The notes beneath the pieces are model-generated. The model was not told where the DNA came from, did no database searches, and saw nothing but the letters and a program-made list of their open reading frames with translations. Of a stretch of 64,000 bases of DNA, positions 25,872-33,858 are shown in pieces. Made by a program: the position numbers and the translations under genes. How positions within the stretch are numbered: the stretch's first letter is position 1; every line of letters begins with the position of its first letter. This stretch comes from Parcubacteria bacterium C7867-001 (GTDB lineage Bacteria; Patescibacteriota; Minisyncoccia; Phycocordibacterales; Phycocordibacteraceae), in contig LFCK01000002.1 in NCBI GenBank assembly GCA_001189095.1, forward strand, positions 131,650 through 195,649, written 5' to 3'.

Positions 25872-27068
25872 ATGGCTGATGCATTCGATCGTTCGAAGCC
25901 GCACATGAACGTAGGTACCATCGGTCACGTCGACCATGGTAAGACCACGCTCACCGCGGCAATCCTGAATGTTCTTAACCTCAACTCGGCAGCAGGCTAC
26001 AAGGCTCGCGTCGAGAAGGTCGAGAACATCGACAACGCGCCTGAAGAAAAGGCTCGTGGTATTACTATTGCTCTTCACCACTCGGAATACGAGTCGCCGA
26101 AGCGTCACTACGCGCACATCGACGCTCCGGGTCACGCAGACTACATCAAGAACATGATCACGGGTGCCGCCCAGATGGACGGCGCAGTTCTCGTGGTCGC
26201 TGCGACTGACGGCGCAATGCCGCAGACGCGCGAGCACATCCTTCTTGCAAAGCAGGTCGGTGTGCCTAAGCTCATCGTCTTCCTCAACAAGGCAGACATG
26301 GTGGACGACAAGGACATGCTTGATCTCGTCGAAGAGGAAATCAAGGAACTTCTTGCAAAGCAGGGTTACACCGATTCCCCAGTCATTAAGGGTTCGGGTC
26401 TCAAGGCACTTGAGGCAACGGACGCAACTAATGAGTGGGCACTCAAGGTGAAGGAACTCGTCGACACGATGGACTCCTACTTCCCAGATCCGGTTCGCGA
26501 AACCGACAAGCCGTTCCTCATGCCGATCGAGGACATCTTCTCGATTGAAGGTCGCGGTACCGTCGTTACGGGCCGCATCGAGCGCGGTATCGTCAAGGTT
26601 GGTGAGGAAGTTGAAATTGTCGGCATGCAGCCAACAACGAAGACGACCATCACTGGTATCGAGATGTTCAACAAGCAGCTTCAGGAAGGTCAGGCTGGCG
26701 ACAACGCAGGTATCCTTCTCCGTGGTACGAAGAAGGAAGACGTGCACCGCGGTCAGGTCCTCTCGAAGTCAGGCGCGGTTACTCCGCACACCGACTTCGA
26801 TGCTGAGGTGTACATCCTCGGCAAGGACGAAGGCGGTCGCCACACCCCATTCTTCACGGGTTACAAGCCGCAGTTCTACGTCCGCACGACGGACGTGACC
26901 GGCGAAGTGACCCTTCCGGAAGGAAAGGAAATGGTCATGCCGGGCGACACTGTCACCTTCAAGGTGAAGCTTGTCGCTCCTATTGCTCTTGAAGAGCAGC
27001 AGCGCTTCGCTATTCGCGAAGGCGGCAAGACCGTGGGTGCAGGTGTCGTGACGAAGATCACGGCGTAA
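25872..27068 (+). CDS. tuf: translation elongation factor Tu
   Basis: [21 protein letters not shown] and SAL-like motifs; 398 aa. Confidence 0.96.
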
Positions 27069-27090: not shown

Positions 27091-27450
27091 ATGGCAGCCA
27101 CTAAGACCTCGAAGAAAGCTACGGCCGCAGCAGTAGCTGCGGGCGAGAGCAAGCTTCGCATCCGGGTCCGTGCCTACGAGCACAAGATTCTCGATCTCTC
27201 GGTGAAGCAGATCATGGATACGGCAGCGCGTTTCGACGCGAAAGTCGTAGGCCCAGTTCCGCTTCCGACGGAGATCAAGCGCTGGACCGTGAACCGCTCG
27301 ACCTTCGTCCATAAAGACGCGCGCGAGCAGTTCGAGATGCGCATCCACAAGCGACTCATCGACATCCTGAATCCGAATGCGAAAGTCATCGAGGCTCTCA
27401 CGAACCTCAGTCTTCCGTCCGGCGTCACGATTGACGTGAAGATGGTCTAG
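27091..27450 (+). CDS. rpsJ: 30S ribosomal protein S10 (with Ala/Lys-rich N-terminal extension)
   Basis: Conserved uS10 core (RIRVRAYEHKILD...); immediately downstream of tuf. Confidence 0.9.
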   Translation: MAATKTSKKATAAAVAAGESKLRIRVRAYEHKILDLSVKQIMDTAARFDAKVVGPVPLPTEIKRWTVNRSTFVHKDAREQFEMRIHKRLIDILNPNAKVIEALTNLSLPSGVTIDVKMV

Positions 27451-27469
27451 GCAGAATTGCCGAAGACAG

Positions 27470-27505
27470 CACAAAACCGCCCCTTGAGGGGCGGTTTTGC
27501 GTTTG
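27470..27505 (+). terminator. intrinsic terminator (AAAACCGCCCC-TTGA-GGGGCGGTTTT)
   Basis: Sits where rplC would normally follow rpsJ. Confidence 0.6.
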
Positions 27506-27547
27506 ATTCGTCTTAATGATTAAGTGCAAGGAGAAAAGGAGAAAGAG

Positions 27548-27760
27548 ATGCAGTTCAAAACAGAAGCAGAGCGTGCCGAAGCGCGGGATACGGCGCTTAA
27601 AGCCGAAGCTGCAGCGGCCTACCTTAGGGCATGCGTTGATAATTCGCATATCAATGCAGGGCTTCCCGTCATCGATCGGCAGTTCACGGTGCCGCAAGCT
27701 CTTGAAAAGGGTCTGGCGCTTGCTCGAAAGATGGCGACAGAACAAGACTTCGTCGGATAA
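27548..27760 (+). CDS. small hypothetical protein A (70 aa, helical, Ala/Glu-rich)
   Basis: Long purine-rich SD AAGGAGAAAAGGAGAAAGAG before ATG. Confidence 0.5.
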   Translation: MQFKTEAERAEARDTALKAEAAAAYLRACVDNSHINAGLPVIDRQFTVPQALEKGLALARKMATEQDFVG

Positions 27761-27769
27761 CCAAGTCCA

Positions 27770-27805
27770 AAATCAACCGCCCCAGAGCACTGGGGCGGTT
27801 TTGCA
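27770..27805 (+). terminator. intrinsic terminator (CAACCGCCCCAG-AGCAC-TGGGGCGGTT TTGC)
   Basis: Same stem sequence as the two neighbouring terminators. Confidence 0.55.
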
Positions 27806-27866
27806 TCGTTTTCTTTTTGTCTCGCAGATGCTTTACTTCTTCGCAGACTAGGAAAGGAGGTGCGCT

Positions 27867-28166
27867 ATGGCACTTACGGTCGATGAATTCATGGAAGTCC
27901 TGCGAATCGAGAAAAAGCTCGAAAATCGCGAGGAACTCACGCCTGAAGAGCAGTCGTTCGCGAAGGAGTATAACTGCACCGGTCCCACGCCTTGCGGTTG
28001 CGGAACCAACTGCGGTCTCTTCCTCGAGCCGCGCGTCGATGGCGAACGTCCTATGCTTAACGGCAAGGAAGTGAACCCCGATTGCTACTGGCGCGAACAC
28101 GACAAGGATGCGCCGAACGTTATCGGTCGCGGACGTCGCGGCGGTCGCGGTGCCTACGGCGACTGA
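27867..28166 (+). CDS. small Cys-containing protein B (99 aa; CTGPTPCGCGTNCG cluster and C-terminal RGRRGGRGAYGD tail)
   Basis: Excellent SD GAAAGGAGGTG before ATG; five Cys; RGG-like basic tail. Confidence 0.5.
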   Translation: MALTVDEFMEVLRIEKKLENREELTPEEQSFAKEYNCTGPTPCGCGTNCGLFLEPRVDGERPMLNGKEVNPDCYWREHDKDAPNVIGRGRRGGRGAYGD

Positions 28167-28167
28167 C

Positions 28168-28210
28168 CTACAACCGCCCCAGCTTTGCTGGGGCGGTTTG
28201 CTTTTGTCCG
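28168..28210 (+). terminator. intrinsic terminator (CAACCGCCCCAGC-TTTG-CTGGGGCGGTTTG CTTTTG)
   Basis: Third copy of the AACCGCCCC/GGGGCGGTT stem. Confidence 0.55.
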
Positions 28211-28251
28211 GTTTCGTGATATAACATAGGTGGAAATGGAGGAAGGCCAAT

Positions 28252-28542
28252 ATGACACTTGGCGAAGTAATCAACGACTTCATCTTGTCACTCGTCGTAA
28301 AGGTCCTTCCGCACGAACGCAAGCGTGTCGAGCGGAAGATAAAGACCTTTAACGAGATGCACATTCAAACCCTGAAGGAGATGGACGAAATCGAGCGACG
28401 CTCGGCGGCTGGCATCGTCAGTCCCGAGCAGGCGCTTGAAGCGAATGTGAGAAAGGAAGAGGAGCTCTGGAACCAAGAAGAGGAAATCCGGAGACTCGCG
28501 TTTTTCCTCGGCATCCCCTTCGAAACAGCGGCGGCGCTCTAA
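28252..28542 (+). CDS. small hypothetical protein C (96 aa, charged and helical)
   Basis: SD GGAGGAAGG before ATG; hairpin (AAGCCGCGGCTCCCTCTGGGATCCGCGGCTT) downstream. Confidence 0.45.
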   Translation: MTLGEVINDFILSLVVKVLPHERKRVERKIKTFNEMHIQTLKEMDEIERRSAAGIVSPEQALEANVRKEEELWNQEEEIRRLAFFLGIPFETAAAL

Positions 28543-28662
28543 GCCCGCCCATAAGCCGCGGCTCCCTCTGGGATCCGCGGCTTCGCTCTTATCTAGGAAT
28601 CAGCTGCCTTGCACCCCTACGGGTACCCAGCGGCTTTGCCCCTCGTCAGGTACCCGGCTGCC

Positions 28663-28691
28663 TTGCACAAAAATGACCCTTCCGGTATAGT
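28663..28691 (+). promoter_or_regulatory. sigma70-like promoter for rplC: TTGCAC-17 nt-TATAGT, followed by a ~100-nt leader
   Basis: A second copy of the -35-containing segment (CAGCTGCCTTGCAC) lies 54 bp upstream; the leader could carry an L4-type autoregulatory structure. Confidence 0.5.
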
Positions 28692-28794
28692 CCGTGGGTC
28701 GCTACGTACACCTTTCGGGTGGACCAATGGCCGGGAACGTCCCTCTTGTTGGGGACCGGAACGCGCTGTTGTACAGCGCGAAATTTTTTACCTC

Positions 28795-29427
28795 ATGAAA
28801 TTCATCCTTGCGCGCAAAGACCGCATGACTCAGATCTTCGACGAGAAGGGAGTCGTGCATGCTGGAACCGTCCTCAAGGCGGATCCTTCGGTCGTTACTC
28901 AGGTGAAGACCGTAGACGGCAAGGACGGATACGCAGCGGTGCAGATAGGCTTCGACAAGCAGACGGAAAAGCGTCTCGCGAAGGCTCAGCACAGCAAAGC
29001 ATTTAAAGTACTCAAGGAATTCCGCATCGATAACGTGGCTGATTACACTGTCGGTGGTGAAGCTGGTGTCGATACCTTCGCTGTCGGAGAGGCGGTGCGC
29101 GTCTCGGGCACGAGCAAGGGTCGCGGCTTCGCTGGTGTCGTGAAGCGCTACAACTTCAAGGGAGGTCGCCGCTCGCACGGTCAGAAGCACTCGGAACGCG
29201 AGCGTGGTTCTTCCGGAGGCGGTCCAGGTCGCGCTGGCGGTCGCGTTGCGCTCGGTATGCGCATGGCCGGCCGCATGGGTTCTGAGCGTGTCACCGTCGA
29301 CGGGCTCAAGGTCCTCCATGTGGACGCAAAGGCAGGCGAAATCATCATCTCGGGAGCAATTCCGGGAGCACGCGGCTCGTTGGTCGAGGTCGTGTCAGCA
29401 CCGCTTGGTCAGGGCAAGAAGAAATAA
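28795..29427 (+). CDS. rplC: 50S ribosomal protein L3
   Basis: KGRGFAGVVKRYNFKGG motif; start at MKFILARK, not the upstream in-frame Met. Confidence 0.92.
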   Translation: MKFILARKDRMTQIFDEKGVVHAGTVLKADPSVVTQVKTVDGKDGYAAVQIGFDKQTEKRLAKAQHSKAFKVLKEFRIDNVADYTVGGEAGVDTFAVGEAVRVSGTSKGRGFAGVVKRYNFKGGRRSHGQKHSERERGSSGGGPGRAGGRVALGMRMAGRMGSERVTVDGLKVLHVDAKAGEIIISGAIPGARGSLVEVVSAPLGQGKKK

Positions 29428-29438
29428 TTTACACACGT

Positions 29439-30188
29439 ATGGCTACTGCAAAAAAGACCGTTGCGAAGAAAGCACCCGCAAAACGCGCTCCAAAAGCGCC
29501 TAAGGCAGATGCGCCTATGAATGCTTCTGAAGCAGTCATTTTCGATATGAAGGGTGGTAAGGCAGGCAGCATCGCGCTTCCCGCAGAACTTTTCGCAGTA
29601 AAGTGGAATTCCGATCTCGTACATCAGGTCGTCACCAGCATTGAGGCCAACAAGCGTCCGACGACCGCGAACACCAAGTTCCGCGGGGAAGTCGCCGGCG
29701 GCGGCAAGAAGCCATGGAAGCAGAAGGGAACCGGCCGTGCTCGCCACGGTTCGACTCGCTCTCCTATCTGGAAGGGCGGCGGTATTACGCACGGTCCGCG
29801 CGCTGAACGCGACTACTCCGTAAAGATCAACAAGAAGATGCGTCGCGCAGCGCTTCTCTCGCTCCTCTCCCGCAAGTGGAAGGACGGTGAAATTGTCTTC
29901 GTCGACAAGCTTTCCTTTGCTACCCCTTCGACGAAGGAGGCAGTCGTCGCACTTACTGCAGTCGGTAAGGCTTCGGGTGCCGATATTGTTTCGAAGAAGA
30001 AGAATGCTGCACTCATCGCGTTTGCAACCAAGGATGTGAATGCCGAGAAGAGTGTTCGCAACATGAGCAACGTCGTGTTCGACGAAATTCGCAACCTTAA
30101 CGCGGCTGACCTCGTGACGAAGAAATACCTCGTTATCGAGCGTCCGACGGAAGCCCTCGCGGTGCTTTCGGGCAAACTCTCTAAGTAA
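29439..30188 (+). CDS. rplD: 50S ribosomal protein L4 (with basic N-terminal extension)
   Basis: KPWKQKGTGRARHGS motif. Confidence 0.92.
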   Translation: MATAKKTVAKKAPAKRAPKAPKADAPMNASEAVIFDMKGGKAGSIALPAELFAVKWNSDLVHQVVTSIEANKRPTTANTKFRGEVAGGGKKPWKQKGTGRARHGSTRSPIWKGGGITHGPRAERDYSVKINKKMRRAALLSLLSRKWKDGEIVFVDKLSFATPSTKEAVVALTAVGKASGADIVSKKKNAALIAFATKDVNAEKSVRNMSNVVFDEIRNLNAADLVTKKYLVIERPTEALAVLSGKLSK

Positions 30189-30195
30189 TACTCGT

Positions 30196-30561
30196 ATGGC
30201 ACTCTTTGGAAACAACAAGAAGAAAGCAGTGAAGGCGCCGAAGGCGCAGGCTCCTAAAGCGACAATCGCGGATACGGCGGGCGTGCTTGAAGGCAAACTC
30301 ACGGGCCCATGGTTCTCGGAAAAGGCGCTTATTGGCACCGAGAAGGGTGTCTATGTCTTCTCCATTCCGATGCACAGCACCAAGAAGGATGTCGCCGCAG
30401 CTATCGAGAAGATGTACAAGGTGACGCCGACGCAGGTCCGCATCGCCAATCTTCCCGCAAAGAAGAAGGCGCTCCGCACTCGTCGCGGTGTCGGCTCGCG
30501 CGCACGTCGCCGCAAGGCCTACGTCTACCTCAAGAAGGGTGACACCATCACGTTCGCATAA
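30196..30561 (+). CDS. rplW: 50S ribosomal protein L23
   Basis: uL23 core (EKGVYVF...) with basic extensions. Confidence 0.88.
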   Translation: MALFGNNKKKAVKAPKAQAPKATIADTAGVLEGKLTGPWFSEKALIGTEKGVYVFSIPMHSTKKDVAAAIEKMYKVTPTQVRIANLPAKKKALRTRRGVGSRARRRKAYVYLKKGDTITFA

Positions 30562-30572
30562 CCATTATTCCT

Positions 30573-31415
30573 ATGAAAACTTATCGCCCCTACACGAAGA
30601 GTCGCCGCAACATGACTACCTTGCCGTACAAGGAGCTTCTTTCGGGCGACCGCCCGATGAAGTCGCTCCTCAAGAGCAAGAAGAGTCAGTCGGGACGCAA
30701 CGCCTTCGGCCGCATCACGACGCGCCATCAGGGTGGTGGTCATAAGAAACGCTACCGCGACGTCGATTTCAAATACGACAAGAAGAATATTCCAGCGAAG
30801 GTAGAAACCATCGAATACGATCCGTACCGCACTGCATTCATCGCTCGCGCACTCTTCGCAGACGGCGAACGCCGTTATGTGCTCGCACCAAAGGACCTCA
30901 AGGTCGGTGATCCGTTCATCGTTTCTGAAACTGCGCCGGTAAAGGTGGGCAACCGCCTTCCGCTCGGCCAGATTCCGACGGGTACGTTCATCTACAACAT
31001 CGAGCTCAAAGTCGGTGCTGGTTCACGCCTCGTCCGCTCGGCAGGCAATTACGCAGAAGTCGTCGCTCACGACGCAGGTTTCGCACAGATCAAGCTTCCG
31101 TCGACCGAAATCCGCAAGGTCTCCGACCTCTGCTGGGCATCGGTTGGTGCGGTTGGCAACGAAAACTCGCGCCTCGTGAAGTTCGGTAAGGCAGGTCGCA
31201 GCCGCTGGATGGGTATCCGTCCGACCGTTCGTGGTACTGCCATGAACGCGGTTGATCACCCACACGGTGGTGGTGAAGGACGTCAGGGCCGCGGTCTCCG
31301 TCGCGCAAAGAGCATGTGGGGCAAGCCGACCGGCAAGGGTCAGAAGTCCCGCACGCCGAAGAAATACTCCAACGTGTTCATCGTTTCTCGTCGCAAGGTC
31401 GGCAAGAAGGGATAA
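30573..31415 (+). CDS. rplB: 50S ribosomal protein L2
   Basis: GGGHKKRYR and HPHGGGEGR motifs. Confidence 0.95.
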   Translation: MKTYRPYTKSRRNMTTLPYKELLSGDRPMKSLLKSKKSQSGRNAFGRITTRHQGGGHKKRYRDVDFKYDKKNIPAKVETIEYDPYRTAFIARALFADGERRYVLAPKDLKVGDPFIVSETAPVKVGNRLPLGQIPTGTFIYNIELKVGAGSRLVRSAGNYAEVVAHDAGFAQIKLPSTEIRKVSDLCWASVGAVGNENSRLVKFGKAGRSRWMGIRPTVRGTAMNAVDHPHGGGEGRQGRGLRRAKSMWGKPTGKGQKSRTPKKYSNVFIVSRRKVGKKG

Positions 31416-31455
31416 AACAAAAAGCCCCGCTTTCGCGGGGCTTTTTGTTTCTGCT
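31416..31455. terminator. bidirectional terminator (AAAAGCCCCGC-TTTC-GCGGGGCTTTTTG)
   Basis: Lies where rpsS would normally follow rplB; convergent with a minus-strand gene. Confidence 0.65.
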
Positions 31456-31456
31456 T

Positions 31457-32116
31457 TTATGATGGCGGATGCTTTTCCTCGTAGAGCTTTACGATCTCGC
31501 GAACGAATTTCCGATCACGCTCCTTGTTTTCGTCAGTGAGTTTCTCGTATGGATCAAGCTGGTCAATGAGATCGGTAAGTCGTGCATCTGCTCGAGCAGC
31601 TTCTTCGTTGGCGAAACCACCTTGCTTCATGCGAATGCTAATTTCTCGCTTCAGGTCCTCCCCGTTACGGAGGAACCACTGTTCGTGTATTGCGTTGGCA
31701 GTTGCATCAATGAATGTCTCGTTGAGCGGCGTTCCATTGCGCGCCGCTCGGTATACGGATTCGATCGCGTAGTCATAGCTTGCGAGCGAGTCTTCCTGTC
31801 GGCTGGGCGGAAGTTCGTCGAACGAGTATGACGCAATGTCGACTGCAGGAACCGCTTCATCTCCGAAATCAGGATCTTTTCCTACGCGCTCCGGATGTTT
31901 CTTCATCCACATCCCGTCCTGCTCTGCGTGCAGCGGCTTGAAACGAGATTTGATAGTTTCGGTCCCGTCGGGGTTCTGTATGCGCCGACCCTCTCGGTAT
32001 TTCTCATGGTTCGCGCTCGCTTGAGTGCGGAAACCGGCAATCATCTCCTTTTCCTCAATAGACAGAGGGCTCACCTCCTTTTTTTTGCTGCCTCCCATGA
32101 ATCGTTCGAAAAACAT
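31457..32116 (-). CDS. hypothetical protein (219 aa, charged, no TM)
   Basis: Long ORF; last gene of a three-gene minus-strand insert within the S10 cluster. Confidence 0.5.
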   Translation of the reverse strand: MFFERFMGGSKKKEVSPLSIEEKEMIAGFRTQASANHEKYREGRRIQNPDGTETIKSRFKPLHAEQDGMWMKKHPERVGKDPDFGDEAVPAVDIASYSFDELPPSRQEDSLASYDYAIESVYRAARNGTPLNETFIDATANAIHEQWFLRNGEDLKREISIRMKQGGFANEEAARADARLTDLIDQLDPYEKLTDENKERDRKFVREIVKLYEEKHPPS

Positions 32117-32163
32117 ACTAGTGCTGTAACTGATAATGCTCTAACTATAAACGGAAGCTGCCA

Positions 32164-32994
32164 CTACTGGTACTTAGTTTTAAGAATTGCCTTGAGGTCG
32201 GAGAGGGGAATGCGAAGGGTTTGCGGACCGGCGGCGTACGCAGCAACTTGATACGGCGGGAAGAGAATAACGAGTGTTTTTCCATCGAGATAGAAACTTT
32301 GGAAATTGTCGCCGTCTGCGGAAGCTCCGTCATTGATGGCCTGCATGTCGACCTGTGAGATCGAGACACCTTCTGCTTTTGCGATGATTGCGGGAAGTTT
32401 TGCTCGAGCGAGCGAGGATATCTTTCCGAGGTAGTCGCTGTTCGGGGTGAAGAGGTCGCCAAACAATACGCCGGCTCCTGTTGCCGAATCGAAGGTAAAG
32501 GTGCGGTAGAACCCGTTACCGTGCGCACCGAGGGTATCTTCATAGATATCGAGCACGTAGGAGATGGTCATTGGTGAAGTGTAGAGTTTGTAGTCGATTG
32601 TGAGCGTGTATTTGCGGCCCTGATCGAGTCCTTGAATCTTGATATCTTCTGCGGTGAGATTTGCGAAATTGCCGTTCTCCTTGAAGCTTTCTATGGTGTT
32701 CTGCTCGAATCCTTTGATTGCGCTTACTGCGCGCTGATCCGCGAGCGCTCCAGCGGTCTTTTTGAGCGGTGTCTCACCAGGGTAGGACGTCGAGATGTCG
32801 TAATATTTTCCGTTCTCTTCGATGGATTTGGGTCCAATCGCAGATACGCTTCCTTCGTCGGTCGAGGTTGCGGTTTCAGACGGACGAGTAAATACGGAAA
32901 GAAGCGGCGACCACGATGGATAGGTGATGTAGAGGCCTTCGCCGACAACGAGGAGGATAAGAACGATAACAAGCGGCGATTTGAGGTGTTCCAT
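32164..32994 (-). CDS. DUF4163/DUF3298 (RsiV/PdaC-like) domain protein with N-terminal TM anchor
   Basis: N-terminal TM helix; C-terminal ...ILFPPYQVAAYAAGPQTLRIPLSDLK matches the DUF3298 signature. Confidence 0.6.
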   Translation of the reverse strand: MEHLKSPLVIVLILLVVGEGLYITYPSWSPLLSVFTRPSETATSTDEGSVSAIGPKSIEENGKYYDISTSYPGETPLKKTAGALADQRAVSAIKGFEQNTIESFKENGNFANLTAEDIKIQGLDQGRKYTLTIDYKLYTSPMTISYVLDIYEDTLGAHGNGFYRTFTFDSATGAGVLFGDLFTPNSDYLGKISSLARAKLPAIIAKAEGVSISQVDMQAINDGASADGDNFQSFYLDGKTLVILFPPYQVAAYAAGPQTLRIPLSDLKAILKTKYQ

Positions 32995-33063
32995 ATCACC
33001 CCATCTTAGCGCACGGAACATGAAGGAAATGCAAAGCCCCGCGCGTAGCGCGGGGCTGTATGG

Positions 33064-33630
33064 TTAGACGCCGAGACGTTTCCTTTGTTTGCGAAGGCCG
33101 ACGAGCCCACGATGCTCTTCGAGCACCTCGCGTTCAGCTCGAGCCTGAAAAATCTGATCGAGCGAGTATTGTCTCGTCGAATACAGGAAGTTCCCACCGA
33201 TGGAGAGTGCCCGCTGCCATTCGGCGTCGAGCATCGCTCCAAAGATTTTAATCTCCGGGTGCTGCTTGTAGGGCTTGTCCTGAGCTGCGAATCCGAGATG
33301 GGACGTATCGGGAATCTTGAAGTGATTCGCGACCGTTCCGTACATAACGTAGTTCGTTCCGGGATTCGCAAGGTCCGGCCTTGATTCGAAGGCGAGCGCA
33401 AGCACGCACTCGTTGTCGTAGCTGTCGTGCGCACGGAATCGGCAGGTGCCGTCCTCCTGTGGCTCGAACATGTTTCGGTGCCAACCGGCAGGAGCGTGCT
33501 CCCGAAGCCATTTGATGCCGCGAGCGACACGGCGCTCGGTAAGGAGCCTGCTCAGTCGATCAGGATCAGTACGCCGGAGCCGAAGATACTCGAGCGATTT
33601 CGCCAAAATTTCCTCTTTTGAGGGTTTCAT
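33064..33630 (-). CDS. hypothetical protein (188 aa)
   Basis: Strong SD TAGGAGGT 6 nt before ATG (start taken at MKPSKEEIL); GC hairpin downstream at 33034..33057. Confidence 0.5.
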   Translation of the reverse strand: MKPSKEEILAKSLEYLRLRRTDPDRLSRLLTERRVARGIKWLREHAPAGWHRNMFEPQEDGTCRFRAHDSYDNECVLALAFESRPDLANPGTNYVMYGTVANHFKIPDTSHLGFAAQDKPYKQHPEIKIFGAMLDAEWQRALSIGGNFLYSTRQYSLDQIFQARAEREVLEEHRGLVGLRKQRKRLGV

Positions 33631-33858
33631 TGAATACCTCCTAAGGTTCAACCTAAGCGAAACCCTAGCATGGGGAGCACCGTTTGACACCCATACGCTT
33701 TTCCTATAGATTGCTCCTATCCGCAAACACGCGGGTTCTGGCCGCTTCTGGCCTTAGGGAGCCTAAACGCTTTCAAAAACCGAGCTTCTGCACCGTATAG
33801 CGGTCGTTAGCTCGGCCGAATTTGTTTAACCCAAAAACCACTTTTACCTACCCAATTC

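Follow-up and report, generated by a model that had tools for sequence, protein, structure and literature searches.

Few gene orders in bacteria are as conserved as that of the S10-spc-alpha cluster, which also forms the backbone of ribosomal-protein phylogenies and of genome binning in the candidate phyla radiation (CPR). Such clusters do have non-ribosomal residents: secY, adk, map, infA and rpoA lie in the spc and alpha operons, and internal promoters of S10-spc-alpha are known. Here we describe a 64,000-nt stretch of the Parcubacteria bacterium C7867-001 genome (contig LFCK01000002.1, positions 131,650 to 195,649; hereafter the window) in which rplB and rpsS are separated by three open reading frames (ORFs) on the opposite strand, orfC, orfB and orfA. 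The middle one, orfB, encodes a membrane-anchored DUF3298 protein and is the conserved core gene of this island. We found it at the same place, always antisense to the ribosomal genes, in most of the related species.

Proteins with comparable ectodomains have been described from other bacteria. RsiV has an N-terminal sigma-V-binding domain ahead of its transmembrane (TM) helix, followed by a DUF4163 and DUF3298 ectodomain (PMC5014341). Lysozyme binding is not general to the DUF4163/DUF3298 fold; MPT64 does not bind lysozyme (PMC5014341, PMC6553557). Another protein, Rv3036c, appears in a citation within PMC10865251 as a reported exported esterase.

We determined how widespread the arrangement is by using L2, the product of rplB, as a query. 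This yielded 80 species-representative loci (here given L numbers) with 70-89% identical L2 from Paceibacterota, Kaiserbacteria and Parcubacteria metagenome-assembled genomes, 66 of which contained both rplB and rpsS. An orfB homolog (31-50% identity) was present within the rplB-rpsS gap in 43 of these 66 loci, and every orfB copy was opposite in strand to the ribosomal genes (46/46). Canonical adjacency, with a gap below 100 bp, was limited to four of the 66 loci, and 57 had gaps of 300-4032 bp. The adjacency of rplB and rpsS is broken in roughly 94% of the species examined. A reverse search, with an orfB motif against metagenomes, returned 80 contigs. Both flanks were found on the opposite strand in 41 of these and one flank in 28, mostly at contig ends. 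Of the 28 contigs that extended for 2.5 kb or more on both sides, 24 had both flanks, one had a single flank and three had none.

The distances between orfB homologs followed those between the L2 proteins (Mantel r = 0.56; 0/2000 permutations as high), with orfB diverging at about three times the rate of L2. On a neighbor-joining tree of rplB, orfB occurred in essentially the whole clade of the window and patchily in the sister clade, and it was absent from the 70%-identity outgroup. Gaps of 81-260 bp in the sister clade look like orfB losses. Both GC content and GC at third codon positions of the block are native (GC 0.52-0.57 compared to 0.549 for the window). No direct or inverted repeats were found flanking the block, and scans against Pfam, NCBIfam, PADLOC and PHROGs revealed no integrase, transposase or other mobility genes in it. 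Considering the synteny in genomes and metagenomes, the co-divergence, the native composition and the absence of repeats and mobility genes, we conclude that the DUF3298 gene is an old, vertically inherited resident. Anti-phage defense and a phage origin were also considered and rejected, as there were no PADLOC or PHROGs matches.

The remainder of the gap is highly variable. A small coiled-coil protein was encoded at 10 loci and a 2OG-Fe(II) oxygenase-like protein at seven. Other cargo included NUDIX, HIT, methyltransferase, purC and AbiEii genes and genes for secreted proteins of more than 1000 aa, as well as IS200-like transposase genes, which were limited to outgroup loci L078 and L079. 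Nucleotide-related enzymes recurred as cargo, namely NUDT9-like NUDIX, HIT and 2OG-Fe(II) oxygenase proteins (L171:4001-5531, L004:7172-8020, L173, L032:6879-7322 and L018:4264-5106). Outgroup genomes without the DUF3298 gene carried IS200-like Y1 transposases, an AbiEii toxin-type nucleotidyltransferase or the secreted >1000-aa proteins in the same gap (L078:6535-7284, L079:5262-5924, L080:8174-9466, L028:5774-9304 and L071:3702-6851). Hence the junction is a general hotspot of the wider group. Both orfA and orfC belong to the variable companion families tied to the gap.

The rplB-rpsS interval in the window measures 2443 bp, and its three minus-strand genes, reported in a first-pass annotation of the sequence, were borne out by the ORF coordinates and by an independent assembly. 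The same gene arrangement is present in NCBI record DGYL01000006.1 (GCA_002396685.1) and in the independent Logan assembly SRR29904085, so the block is not an assembly artifact. Misassembly and spurious ORFs were ruled out by this assembly together with conserved homologs and confident AlphaFold2 (AF2) models. The block had been drawn to position 33726, where the longest ORF begins with an upstream TTG; the ATG of the 188-aa version given for orfA is the start used by the public annotation. Its perfect Shine-Dalgarno (SD) sequence was likewise described correctly, with AGGAGG 6 nt 5' of that ATG.

The canonical S10 organization, in which rpsS immediately follows rplB and the two are co-transcribed, was not found in the window, where a predicted terminator follows rplB and a predicted promoter precedes rpsS (Table 1). 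In the terminator between rplB and orfC, an A-run and a T-run border a perfect stem of 16 bp, and the folding energy is -32.5 kcal/mol. A strong hairpin (≤ -15 kcal/mol within 55 nt of the rplB stop) was found in 68 of 79 related loci, and all four loci with a gap below 100 bp are among the 11 without one. Rfam (15) gave only sub-threshold matches in the intergenic regions, all of them from the terminator hairpin and to terminator parts of other models. The block had been described as flanked by bidirectional terminators; this holds for the rplB/orfC side but not for the rpsS side, where positions 33631-33858 contain a divergent promoter region and the rpsS leader. The second hairpin is internal to the block and may be either an orfA terminator or attenuator, or an intercistronic stabilizer.

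Predicted rpsS promoters were found in nearly all related loci, as TTGACA-17-TAGATT in the clade of the window and TTGACG/T-17-TATCTT in the sister clade. They were also found in loci without an inserted gene, directly after or overlapping the rplB end, and the putative internal promoter is therefore older than the island. On the antisense side, the extended -10 box TGnTAGGGT is conserved 17 nt from the GTGTCA that overlaps the rpsS -35 box. Related loci with an orfA-like gene facing rpsS keep the motif ACCCTAGCA in the same place. We infer an antisense transcription start site (TSS) near 33655, which would give a leader of ~25 nt containing the orfA SD. Where orfB directly faces rpsS (L013, L042, L044, L048, L057 and L067), a TATACT box lies 6-8 nt 5' of the orfB ATG, a position that suggests a leaderless orfB mRNA.

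Taken together, the comparison shows that in a Kaiserbacteria-related clade of Parcubacteria/Paceibacteria the cluster is cut between rplB and rpsS by a predicted terminator and by a putative sigma-70-type promoter and hairpin belonging to rpsS itself. It also shows that the space between the two genes holds, in most species, an always-antisense orfB that has co-diverged with rplB.

A separate observation concerns the sister clade, where a conserved ~60-nt non-coding element, GGTTCTGAAACGGATTAGGATTTATGAGGGTGTTTTGGAACGGTAC, lies immediately 5' of the rpsS promoter (~60 nt upstream of the -35 box), even at loci without an inserted gene. It has a TTGACA box on the opposite strand and was found in genomes (L027, L029-L031, L034, L035, L040, L056, L059, L060 and L076) and metagenomes (L094, L095, L100, L121, L125, L132, L135, L137 and L148).

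We also looked at the 5' leader of rpsS. About 8 nt after the -10 box is a conserved hairpin of the form (T)CCCGC-loop-GCGGG, followed by CTTTTCATT or CUUUUCAUU (window 33713-33740; e.g. L047:7864-7921). A regular expression for this hairpin matched 91 times in 1.38 Mb, and 89 of the 91 matches were directly 5' of an rpsS start. In the alignment, 93% of cells were paired with little covariation, because the stem is nearly invariant in the ingroup. Nested-hairpin insertions in the loop (L013, L042/L115 and L155), differing outgroup stems and the fixed spacing from the -10 box favor a stem at the RNA level. Positions 33631-33858 had no Rfam (15) match at the gathering threshold or at E ≤ 1.

In the subclade of the window only, the leader is extended to ~145 nt by a further long hairpin (33764-33828, core 33780-33815; other leaders at L001:9232-9382, L003:3374-3502, L004:10338-10488 and L092:3717-3865). 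Its loop reads GUAUAGC, as in the window, or GUAUAUC, and the stems differ between genomes. The MAFFT/RNAalifold alignment of these leaders misaligned the long hairpins and was uninformative on covariation. No SD precedes rpsS (33835-33858), where the sequence is pyrimidine-rich and ends in CCACTTTTACCTACCCAATTC-ATG; the neighboring orfA has its perfect AGGAGG (33631-33648). An SD-less, U/C-rich rpsS leader is found throughout the clade. The proximal hairpin could be a 5' stabilizer, an attenuator or a binding site for a ribosomal protein.

The membrane anchor and DUF3298 domain proposed for orfB were confirmed by hidden Markov model (HMM) matches, the TM helix and a family profile. The Pfam DUF3298 (PF11738) match scored 57 bits against a cutoff of 24.1 and covered profile positions 2-84 of 84. 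The match to PdaC/DUF4163 (PF13739) at residues 67-169 was weak (20 bits against 29.1). Among 26 family members, 25 had DUF3298 and seven had PdaC, with a best E-value of 6.8e-10, and a divergent DUF4163/PdaC domain is probably present in orfB. Searched against the Protein Data Bank (PDB), the family profile matched 3cyg (E-value 1e-13, with the alignment beginning at residue 87), 3s5t (1e-12), MPT64 (5e-12) and RsiV (5jen, 7e-10).

The N-terminal hydrophobic helix of orfB spans residues 15-33 (Kyte-Doolittle mean 2.14), and nearly all of 43 family members examined began with a short basic tail, followed by a single hydrophobic helix and the ectodomain. The start is most likely Met10 (32994), which is preceded by GGGGTGAT and would move the beginning of the helix to residue 6; the resulting tail resembles those of the homologs. 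Within the DUF4163/DUF3298 group (MPT64, 3CYG and the RsiV ectodomain), orfB is a new subfamily member; it lacks the features that define RsiV, PdaC and the Rv3036c equivalog.

The two companion genes differ in how far they can be assigned. The orfA sequence matches ABA06_03355 of Parcubacteria bacterium C7867-001 at 100% identity. It had no match in Pfam, NCBIfam, PADLOC, PHROGs or, by sequence, in the PDB, and it has no known fold. A search of 5.8 billion protein clusters gave only 18 relatives, an orphan family restricted to the clade. The homologs of orfA lay immediately 5' of the DUF3298 gene and pointed away from rpsS in every context inspected (L011, L012, L047, L051, L055, L085, L087, L090, L102/103, L106, L114 and L162).

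orfC appears to be a divergent RyR-domain-like protein. Its match to Pfam RyR (PF02026) was below threshold, and half of the aligned sequences among its 87 relatives, found in a full-library search, matched the RyR HMM weakly. The AF2 model is very confident (predicted local distance difference test 92.5) and could be aligned with RyR repeat structures (71-125 residues, 12-24% identity). A Foldseek search of the PDB with this model returned nothing significant, and a PDB sequence search was also without a match. Each of its four closest relatives (37-50% identity) sits in an rplB-rpsS gap, adjoining the 3' end of rplB. At L171:4001-5531, an orfC-like gene with an RyR domain and a NUDT9-like NUDIX gene overlap as genes of an operon do, a hint of a functional connection to the metabolism of ADP-ribose or nucleotides. 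Our literature search on the function of bacterial RyR domains was unproductive.

We consider it likely that the block is a lineage-conserved antisense unit at an internal operon boundary of the S10/spc cluster, that is, an insulated envelope-protein unit at a permissive site. Transcription of the unit would start at the extended -10 promoter, back-to-back with the rpsS promoter and with overlapping -35 hexamers, and would end at the bidirectional terminator common with rplB without colliding with ribosomal transcription. orfB would be exported with its N terminus inside and its C terminus outside. In the envelope it would bind or hydrolyze an envelope or environmental ligand, as a module of the MPT64, 3CYG and RsiV-ectodomain type and not as an anti-sigma factor, and orfA would work with it. 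The boundary would persist as a permissive landing site because genes placed between the terminator and the promoter leave expression of the ribosomal operon undisturbed.

Several points weigh against this. orfB is missing from the sister-clade members with short gaps, so it must be dispensable or relocated there, and the rplB tree is a rough single-gene neighbor-joining tree. The promoters, TSSs and terminators rest on consensus and conservation, and the antisense -35 box is weak (4/6 consensus). The internal hairpin may stop transcription before orfB, which might then depend on a separate promoter. Downstream of this hairpin, 8 nt before Met10 (window 32995-33010), is a TAAGAT box, and taking it as the orfB promoter is a guess. 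Finally, we know of no biochemical activity established for DUF3298 domains in general.

Other readings of orfB and of its position have to be weighed against an insulated envelope-protein unit. The first-pass annotation had compared orfB to RsiV and PdaC. If orfB were an RsiV-type anti-sigma factor and lysozyme receptor, a ligand would trigger regulated proteolysis and the release of a sigma factor. The TM helix with its DUF4163/DUF3298-type ectodomain, the profile match to 5jen and a weak match to the NCBIfam RsiV model (NF052658) agree with this. However, that match reaches only 23.7 against a cutoff of 250, and the cytoplasmic tail of ~6-14 residues, found in nearly all family members, leaves no room for the sigma-binding domain that defines RsiV. 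There was no sigma gene in the gap at any locus inspected, nor a sigma domain in the Pfam-scanned gap genes or the precomputed annotations of the inspected contexts. The closest solved relatives are MPT64, 3cyg and 3s5t, the first of which is the protein that does not bind lysozyme (PMC5014341, PMC6553557). An RsiV-type role is very improbable, and its anti-sigma part is largely refuted. The likeness to PdaC did not hold either, as Pfam gave no polysaccharide deacetylase domain at E ≤ 1 and only the DUF3298 and PdaC-domain HMMs matched. orfB might instead be an exported enzyme, such as an Rv3036c-like esterase or a cell-wall-modifying hydrolase, and not a binding module. The Rv3036c esterase model (NF043047) is its best NCBIfam match at 51.6 bits, the esterase assignment itself being one cited in PMC10865251, and His167 and Ser202 are conserved in every family member and Asp178 in nearly all. 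Yet this score is far under the equivalog cutoff of 200 and covers only the DUF3298 part, the GAH motif is a general DUF3298 feature and the deacetylase domain is missing, which leaves an enzyme rather unlikely.

As for its position, the block had been called an insert, which in its plain sense would be peculiar to this genome, and a look at sister genomes had been proposed. The 43 relatives and the 24 well-flanked contigs with the gene in the same gap contradict such an insert. It is true that the exact trio of orfA, orfB and orfC was seen only in this species and that the nearest relative, L001, has other companions, but all three families recur at the same gap in other lineages. This recurrence, the native composition, the absence of integrase and flanking repeats and the co-divergence with rplB led us to reject a recent mobile insert; a recent horizontal acquisition specific to C7867-001 is extremely improbable. 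The opposite orientation within a highly expressed cluster also raised the idea of interference with the S10 genes, in which the antisense unit would mainly regulate ribosomal expression by convergent or antisense transcription into rplB or rpsS. Since the unit diverges from rpsS, giving transcripts without overlap, and ends at the perfect bidirectional terminator between orfC and rplB, antisense interference appears unlikely, and with genes that encode conserved, well-folding proteins, such a regulatory role is highly unlikely. Synteny by inertia denies only functional coupling: the gap would be neutral or permissive, orfB would simply not have moved and its position by the rpsS promoter would have no regulatory meaning. 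The diverse, unrelated cargo that differs by lineage, the loss of orfB in several lineages and the interruption of other junctions of the same cluster agree with inertia. The invariant orientation (46/46 in the genome loci and without exception in the flanked metagenome loci), the conserved antisense promoter boxes beside the rpsS -35 box and the retention of orfB across ~30% L2 divergence, while evolving three times faster, speak against it. We regard inertia as possible but somewhat doubtful. At the other extreme, the boundary might be a dedicated bidirectional module, in which the -35 overlap between the promoter of orfA and the DUF3298 gene and that of rpsS would couple envelope or surface-protein output to ribosome synthesis in these organisms with tiny genomes, and the rpsS hairpin with its U-run would be an undescribed ribosomal-protein leader that serves as an attenuator or an autoregulatory binding site. 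This is an unlikely explanation.

An insulated unit at this boundary would provide a natural example of an operon boundary that serves as a landing pad for accessory genes. A non-ribosomal membrane-protein gene is fixed antisense inside the S10-spc-alpha cluster across a clade, and the rplB-orfB-rpsS arrangement is a clean, synapomorphy-like taxonomic marker for that clade. Expression of the DUF3298 protein is predicted to accompany that of the ribosomal genes. DUF3298, the orfA family and the bacterial RyR-like proteins are functionally uncharacterized, and their strict linkage offers an experimental handle. The rpsS-specific leader hairpin is a candidate cis-regulatory element that is absent from Rfam.

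Table 1. Features of the rplB-rpsS interval (positions in the window)
Feature	Position	Strand	Basis
rplB (L2), last in the upstream S10-type unit	30573..31415	+	ORF and translation; 70-89% identity to L2 of 80 Paceibacterota/Kaiserbacteria genomes
Predicted bidirectional intrinsic terminator common to rplB (+) and orfC (-), AAACAAAAAGCCCCGC-TTTC-GCGGGGCTTTTTGTTT	31415..31450	both	Terminator scan; perfect 16-nt inverted repeat
orfC, 219 aa (213 aa from Met7, the public annotation start); soluble, helical, divergent RyR-domain-like	31457..32116	-	HMM; AF2 model
orfB, 285 aa (276 aa from Met10 at 32994, the probable start); one TM helix behind a short tail, then an ectodomain with probable DUF4163(PdaC) and DUF3298	32164..33021	-	HMM matches; family profile; synteny
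GC-rich hairpin (10 bp) with weak U-tract, between orfA stop and orfB start	33035..33057	-	Terminator scan; GCCCCGCG core common with the rplB terminator
orfA, 188 aa, cytoplasmic orphan protein with AGGAGG SD; upstream partner of the DUF3298 gene	33064..33630	-	ORF; SD
Predicted antisense-unit promoter: -35-like GTGTCA (33685-33690), 17 nt, extended -10 TGcTAGGGT (33662-33670)	33662..33690	-	Consensus and conservation
Predicted rpsS promoter TTGACA-17-TAGATT; -35 overlaps the antisense -35	33684..33712	+	Promoter scan, 10/12 matches
rpsS 5' leader: proximal hairpin ATCCGC/GCGGGT (~33719-33736) and extra long hairpin	33713..33858	+	Fold -46 kcal/mol, z -2.84
rpsS (S19), heading the downstream unit rpsS-rplV-rpsC-rplP-rpmC-rpsQ-rplN...	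33859..34200	+	ORF list; Pfam-annotated neighbors in source record

Upstream of the interval, the plus strand carries tuf (25872-27068), rpsJ (27091-27450), rplC (ending at 29427), rplD (29439-30188) and rplW (30196-30561) before rplB, and downstream the unit continues past rplN with rplX and rplE. The cluster is interrupted a second time between rpsJ and rplC (27451-28794, ~1.3 kb), with small same-strand ORFs at 27524-27760, 27867-28166 and 28252-28542; the latter two had no Pfam match in our scan. Unannotated genes were also present at the rpsJ-rplC and rplE-rpsN junctions of related genomes (L085 and L087). Elsewhere, the window contains a full-length transfer-messenger RNA gene (56020-56437, minus strand; Rfam RF00023, 98.8 bits) and a tRNA-Ile with anticodon TAT (UAU; 59393-59467, minus strand). 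AUA is mostly decoded in bacteria by a lysidine-modified CAU tRNA, and a genomic UAU tRNA-Ile is uncommon.

Like the classical residents of ribosomal clusters, orfB is a non-ribosomal gene, here for a membrane-anchored envelope protein, that has stayed embedded over long evolutionary times in a cluster split into several units. Unlike those residents, which are co-directional and co-transcribed, it is always antisense, has its own predicted divergent promoter and sits at the rplB/rpsS break of a normally contiguous S10 unit. The literature that we searched on DUF3298 in Parcubacteria, the CPR S10 operon and rplB/rpsS insertions held nothing relevant, and it described no conserved, always-antisense resident at an S10 break combined with a hotspot of variable cargo and a leader specific to rpsS. 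Nor did it link MPT64-, 3CYG- or BF2082-type proteins to ribosomal genes by genomic position.

At the protein level, orfB belongs to the same domain family as MPT64 (Rv1980c), 3CYG and BF2082 (3S5T), with the three profile matches given above. These relatives are likewise exported or extracytoplasmic and stand-alone, with no extra catalytic or regulatory domain. orfB differs in being held by an N-terminal TM anchor and in belonging to a subfamily specific to the CPR, with its gene fixed in antisense orientation in the rplB-rpsS gap. With RsiV (PDB 5JEN) it shares the single TM helix followed by an ectodomain that has DUF3298 and, in orfB, a probable DUF4163, but it has no N-terminal sigma-binding domain or partner sigma gene and scores far under the RsiV cutoff. 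orfC, through its own weak HMM match and those of half its relatives, resembles the prokaryotic RyR-domain proteins (PF02026; 3NRT of B. thetaiotaomicron). The rpsS leader, finally, recalls the E. coli S10 leader, an L4-controlled attenuator 5' of rpsJ, in that a conserved hairpin with a following U-run separates a promoter from the leading ribosomal gene of its unit. Its hairpin is only 5-7 bp, begins at about +2 from the predicted TSS, precedes rpsS and not rpsJ and has no Rfam match, and a role as a 5'-end stabilizer would be equally plausible.

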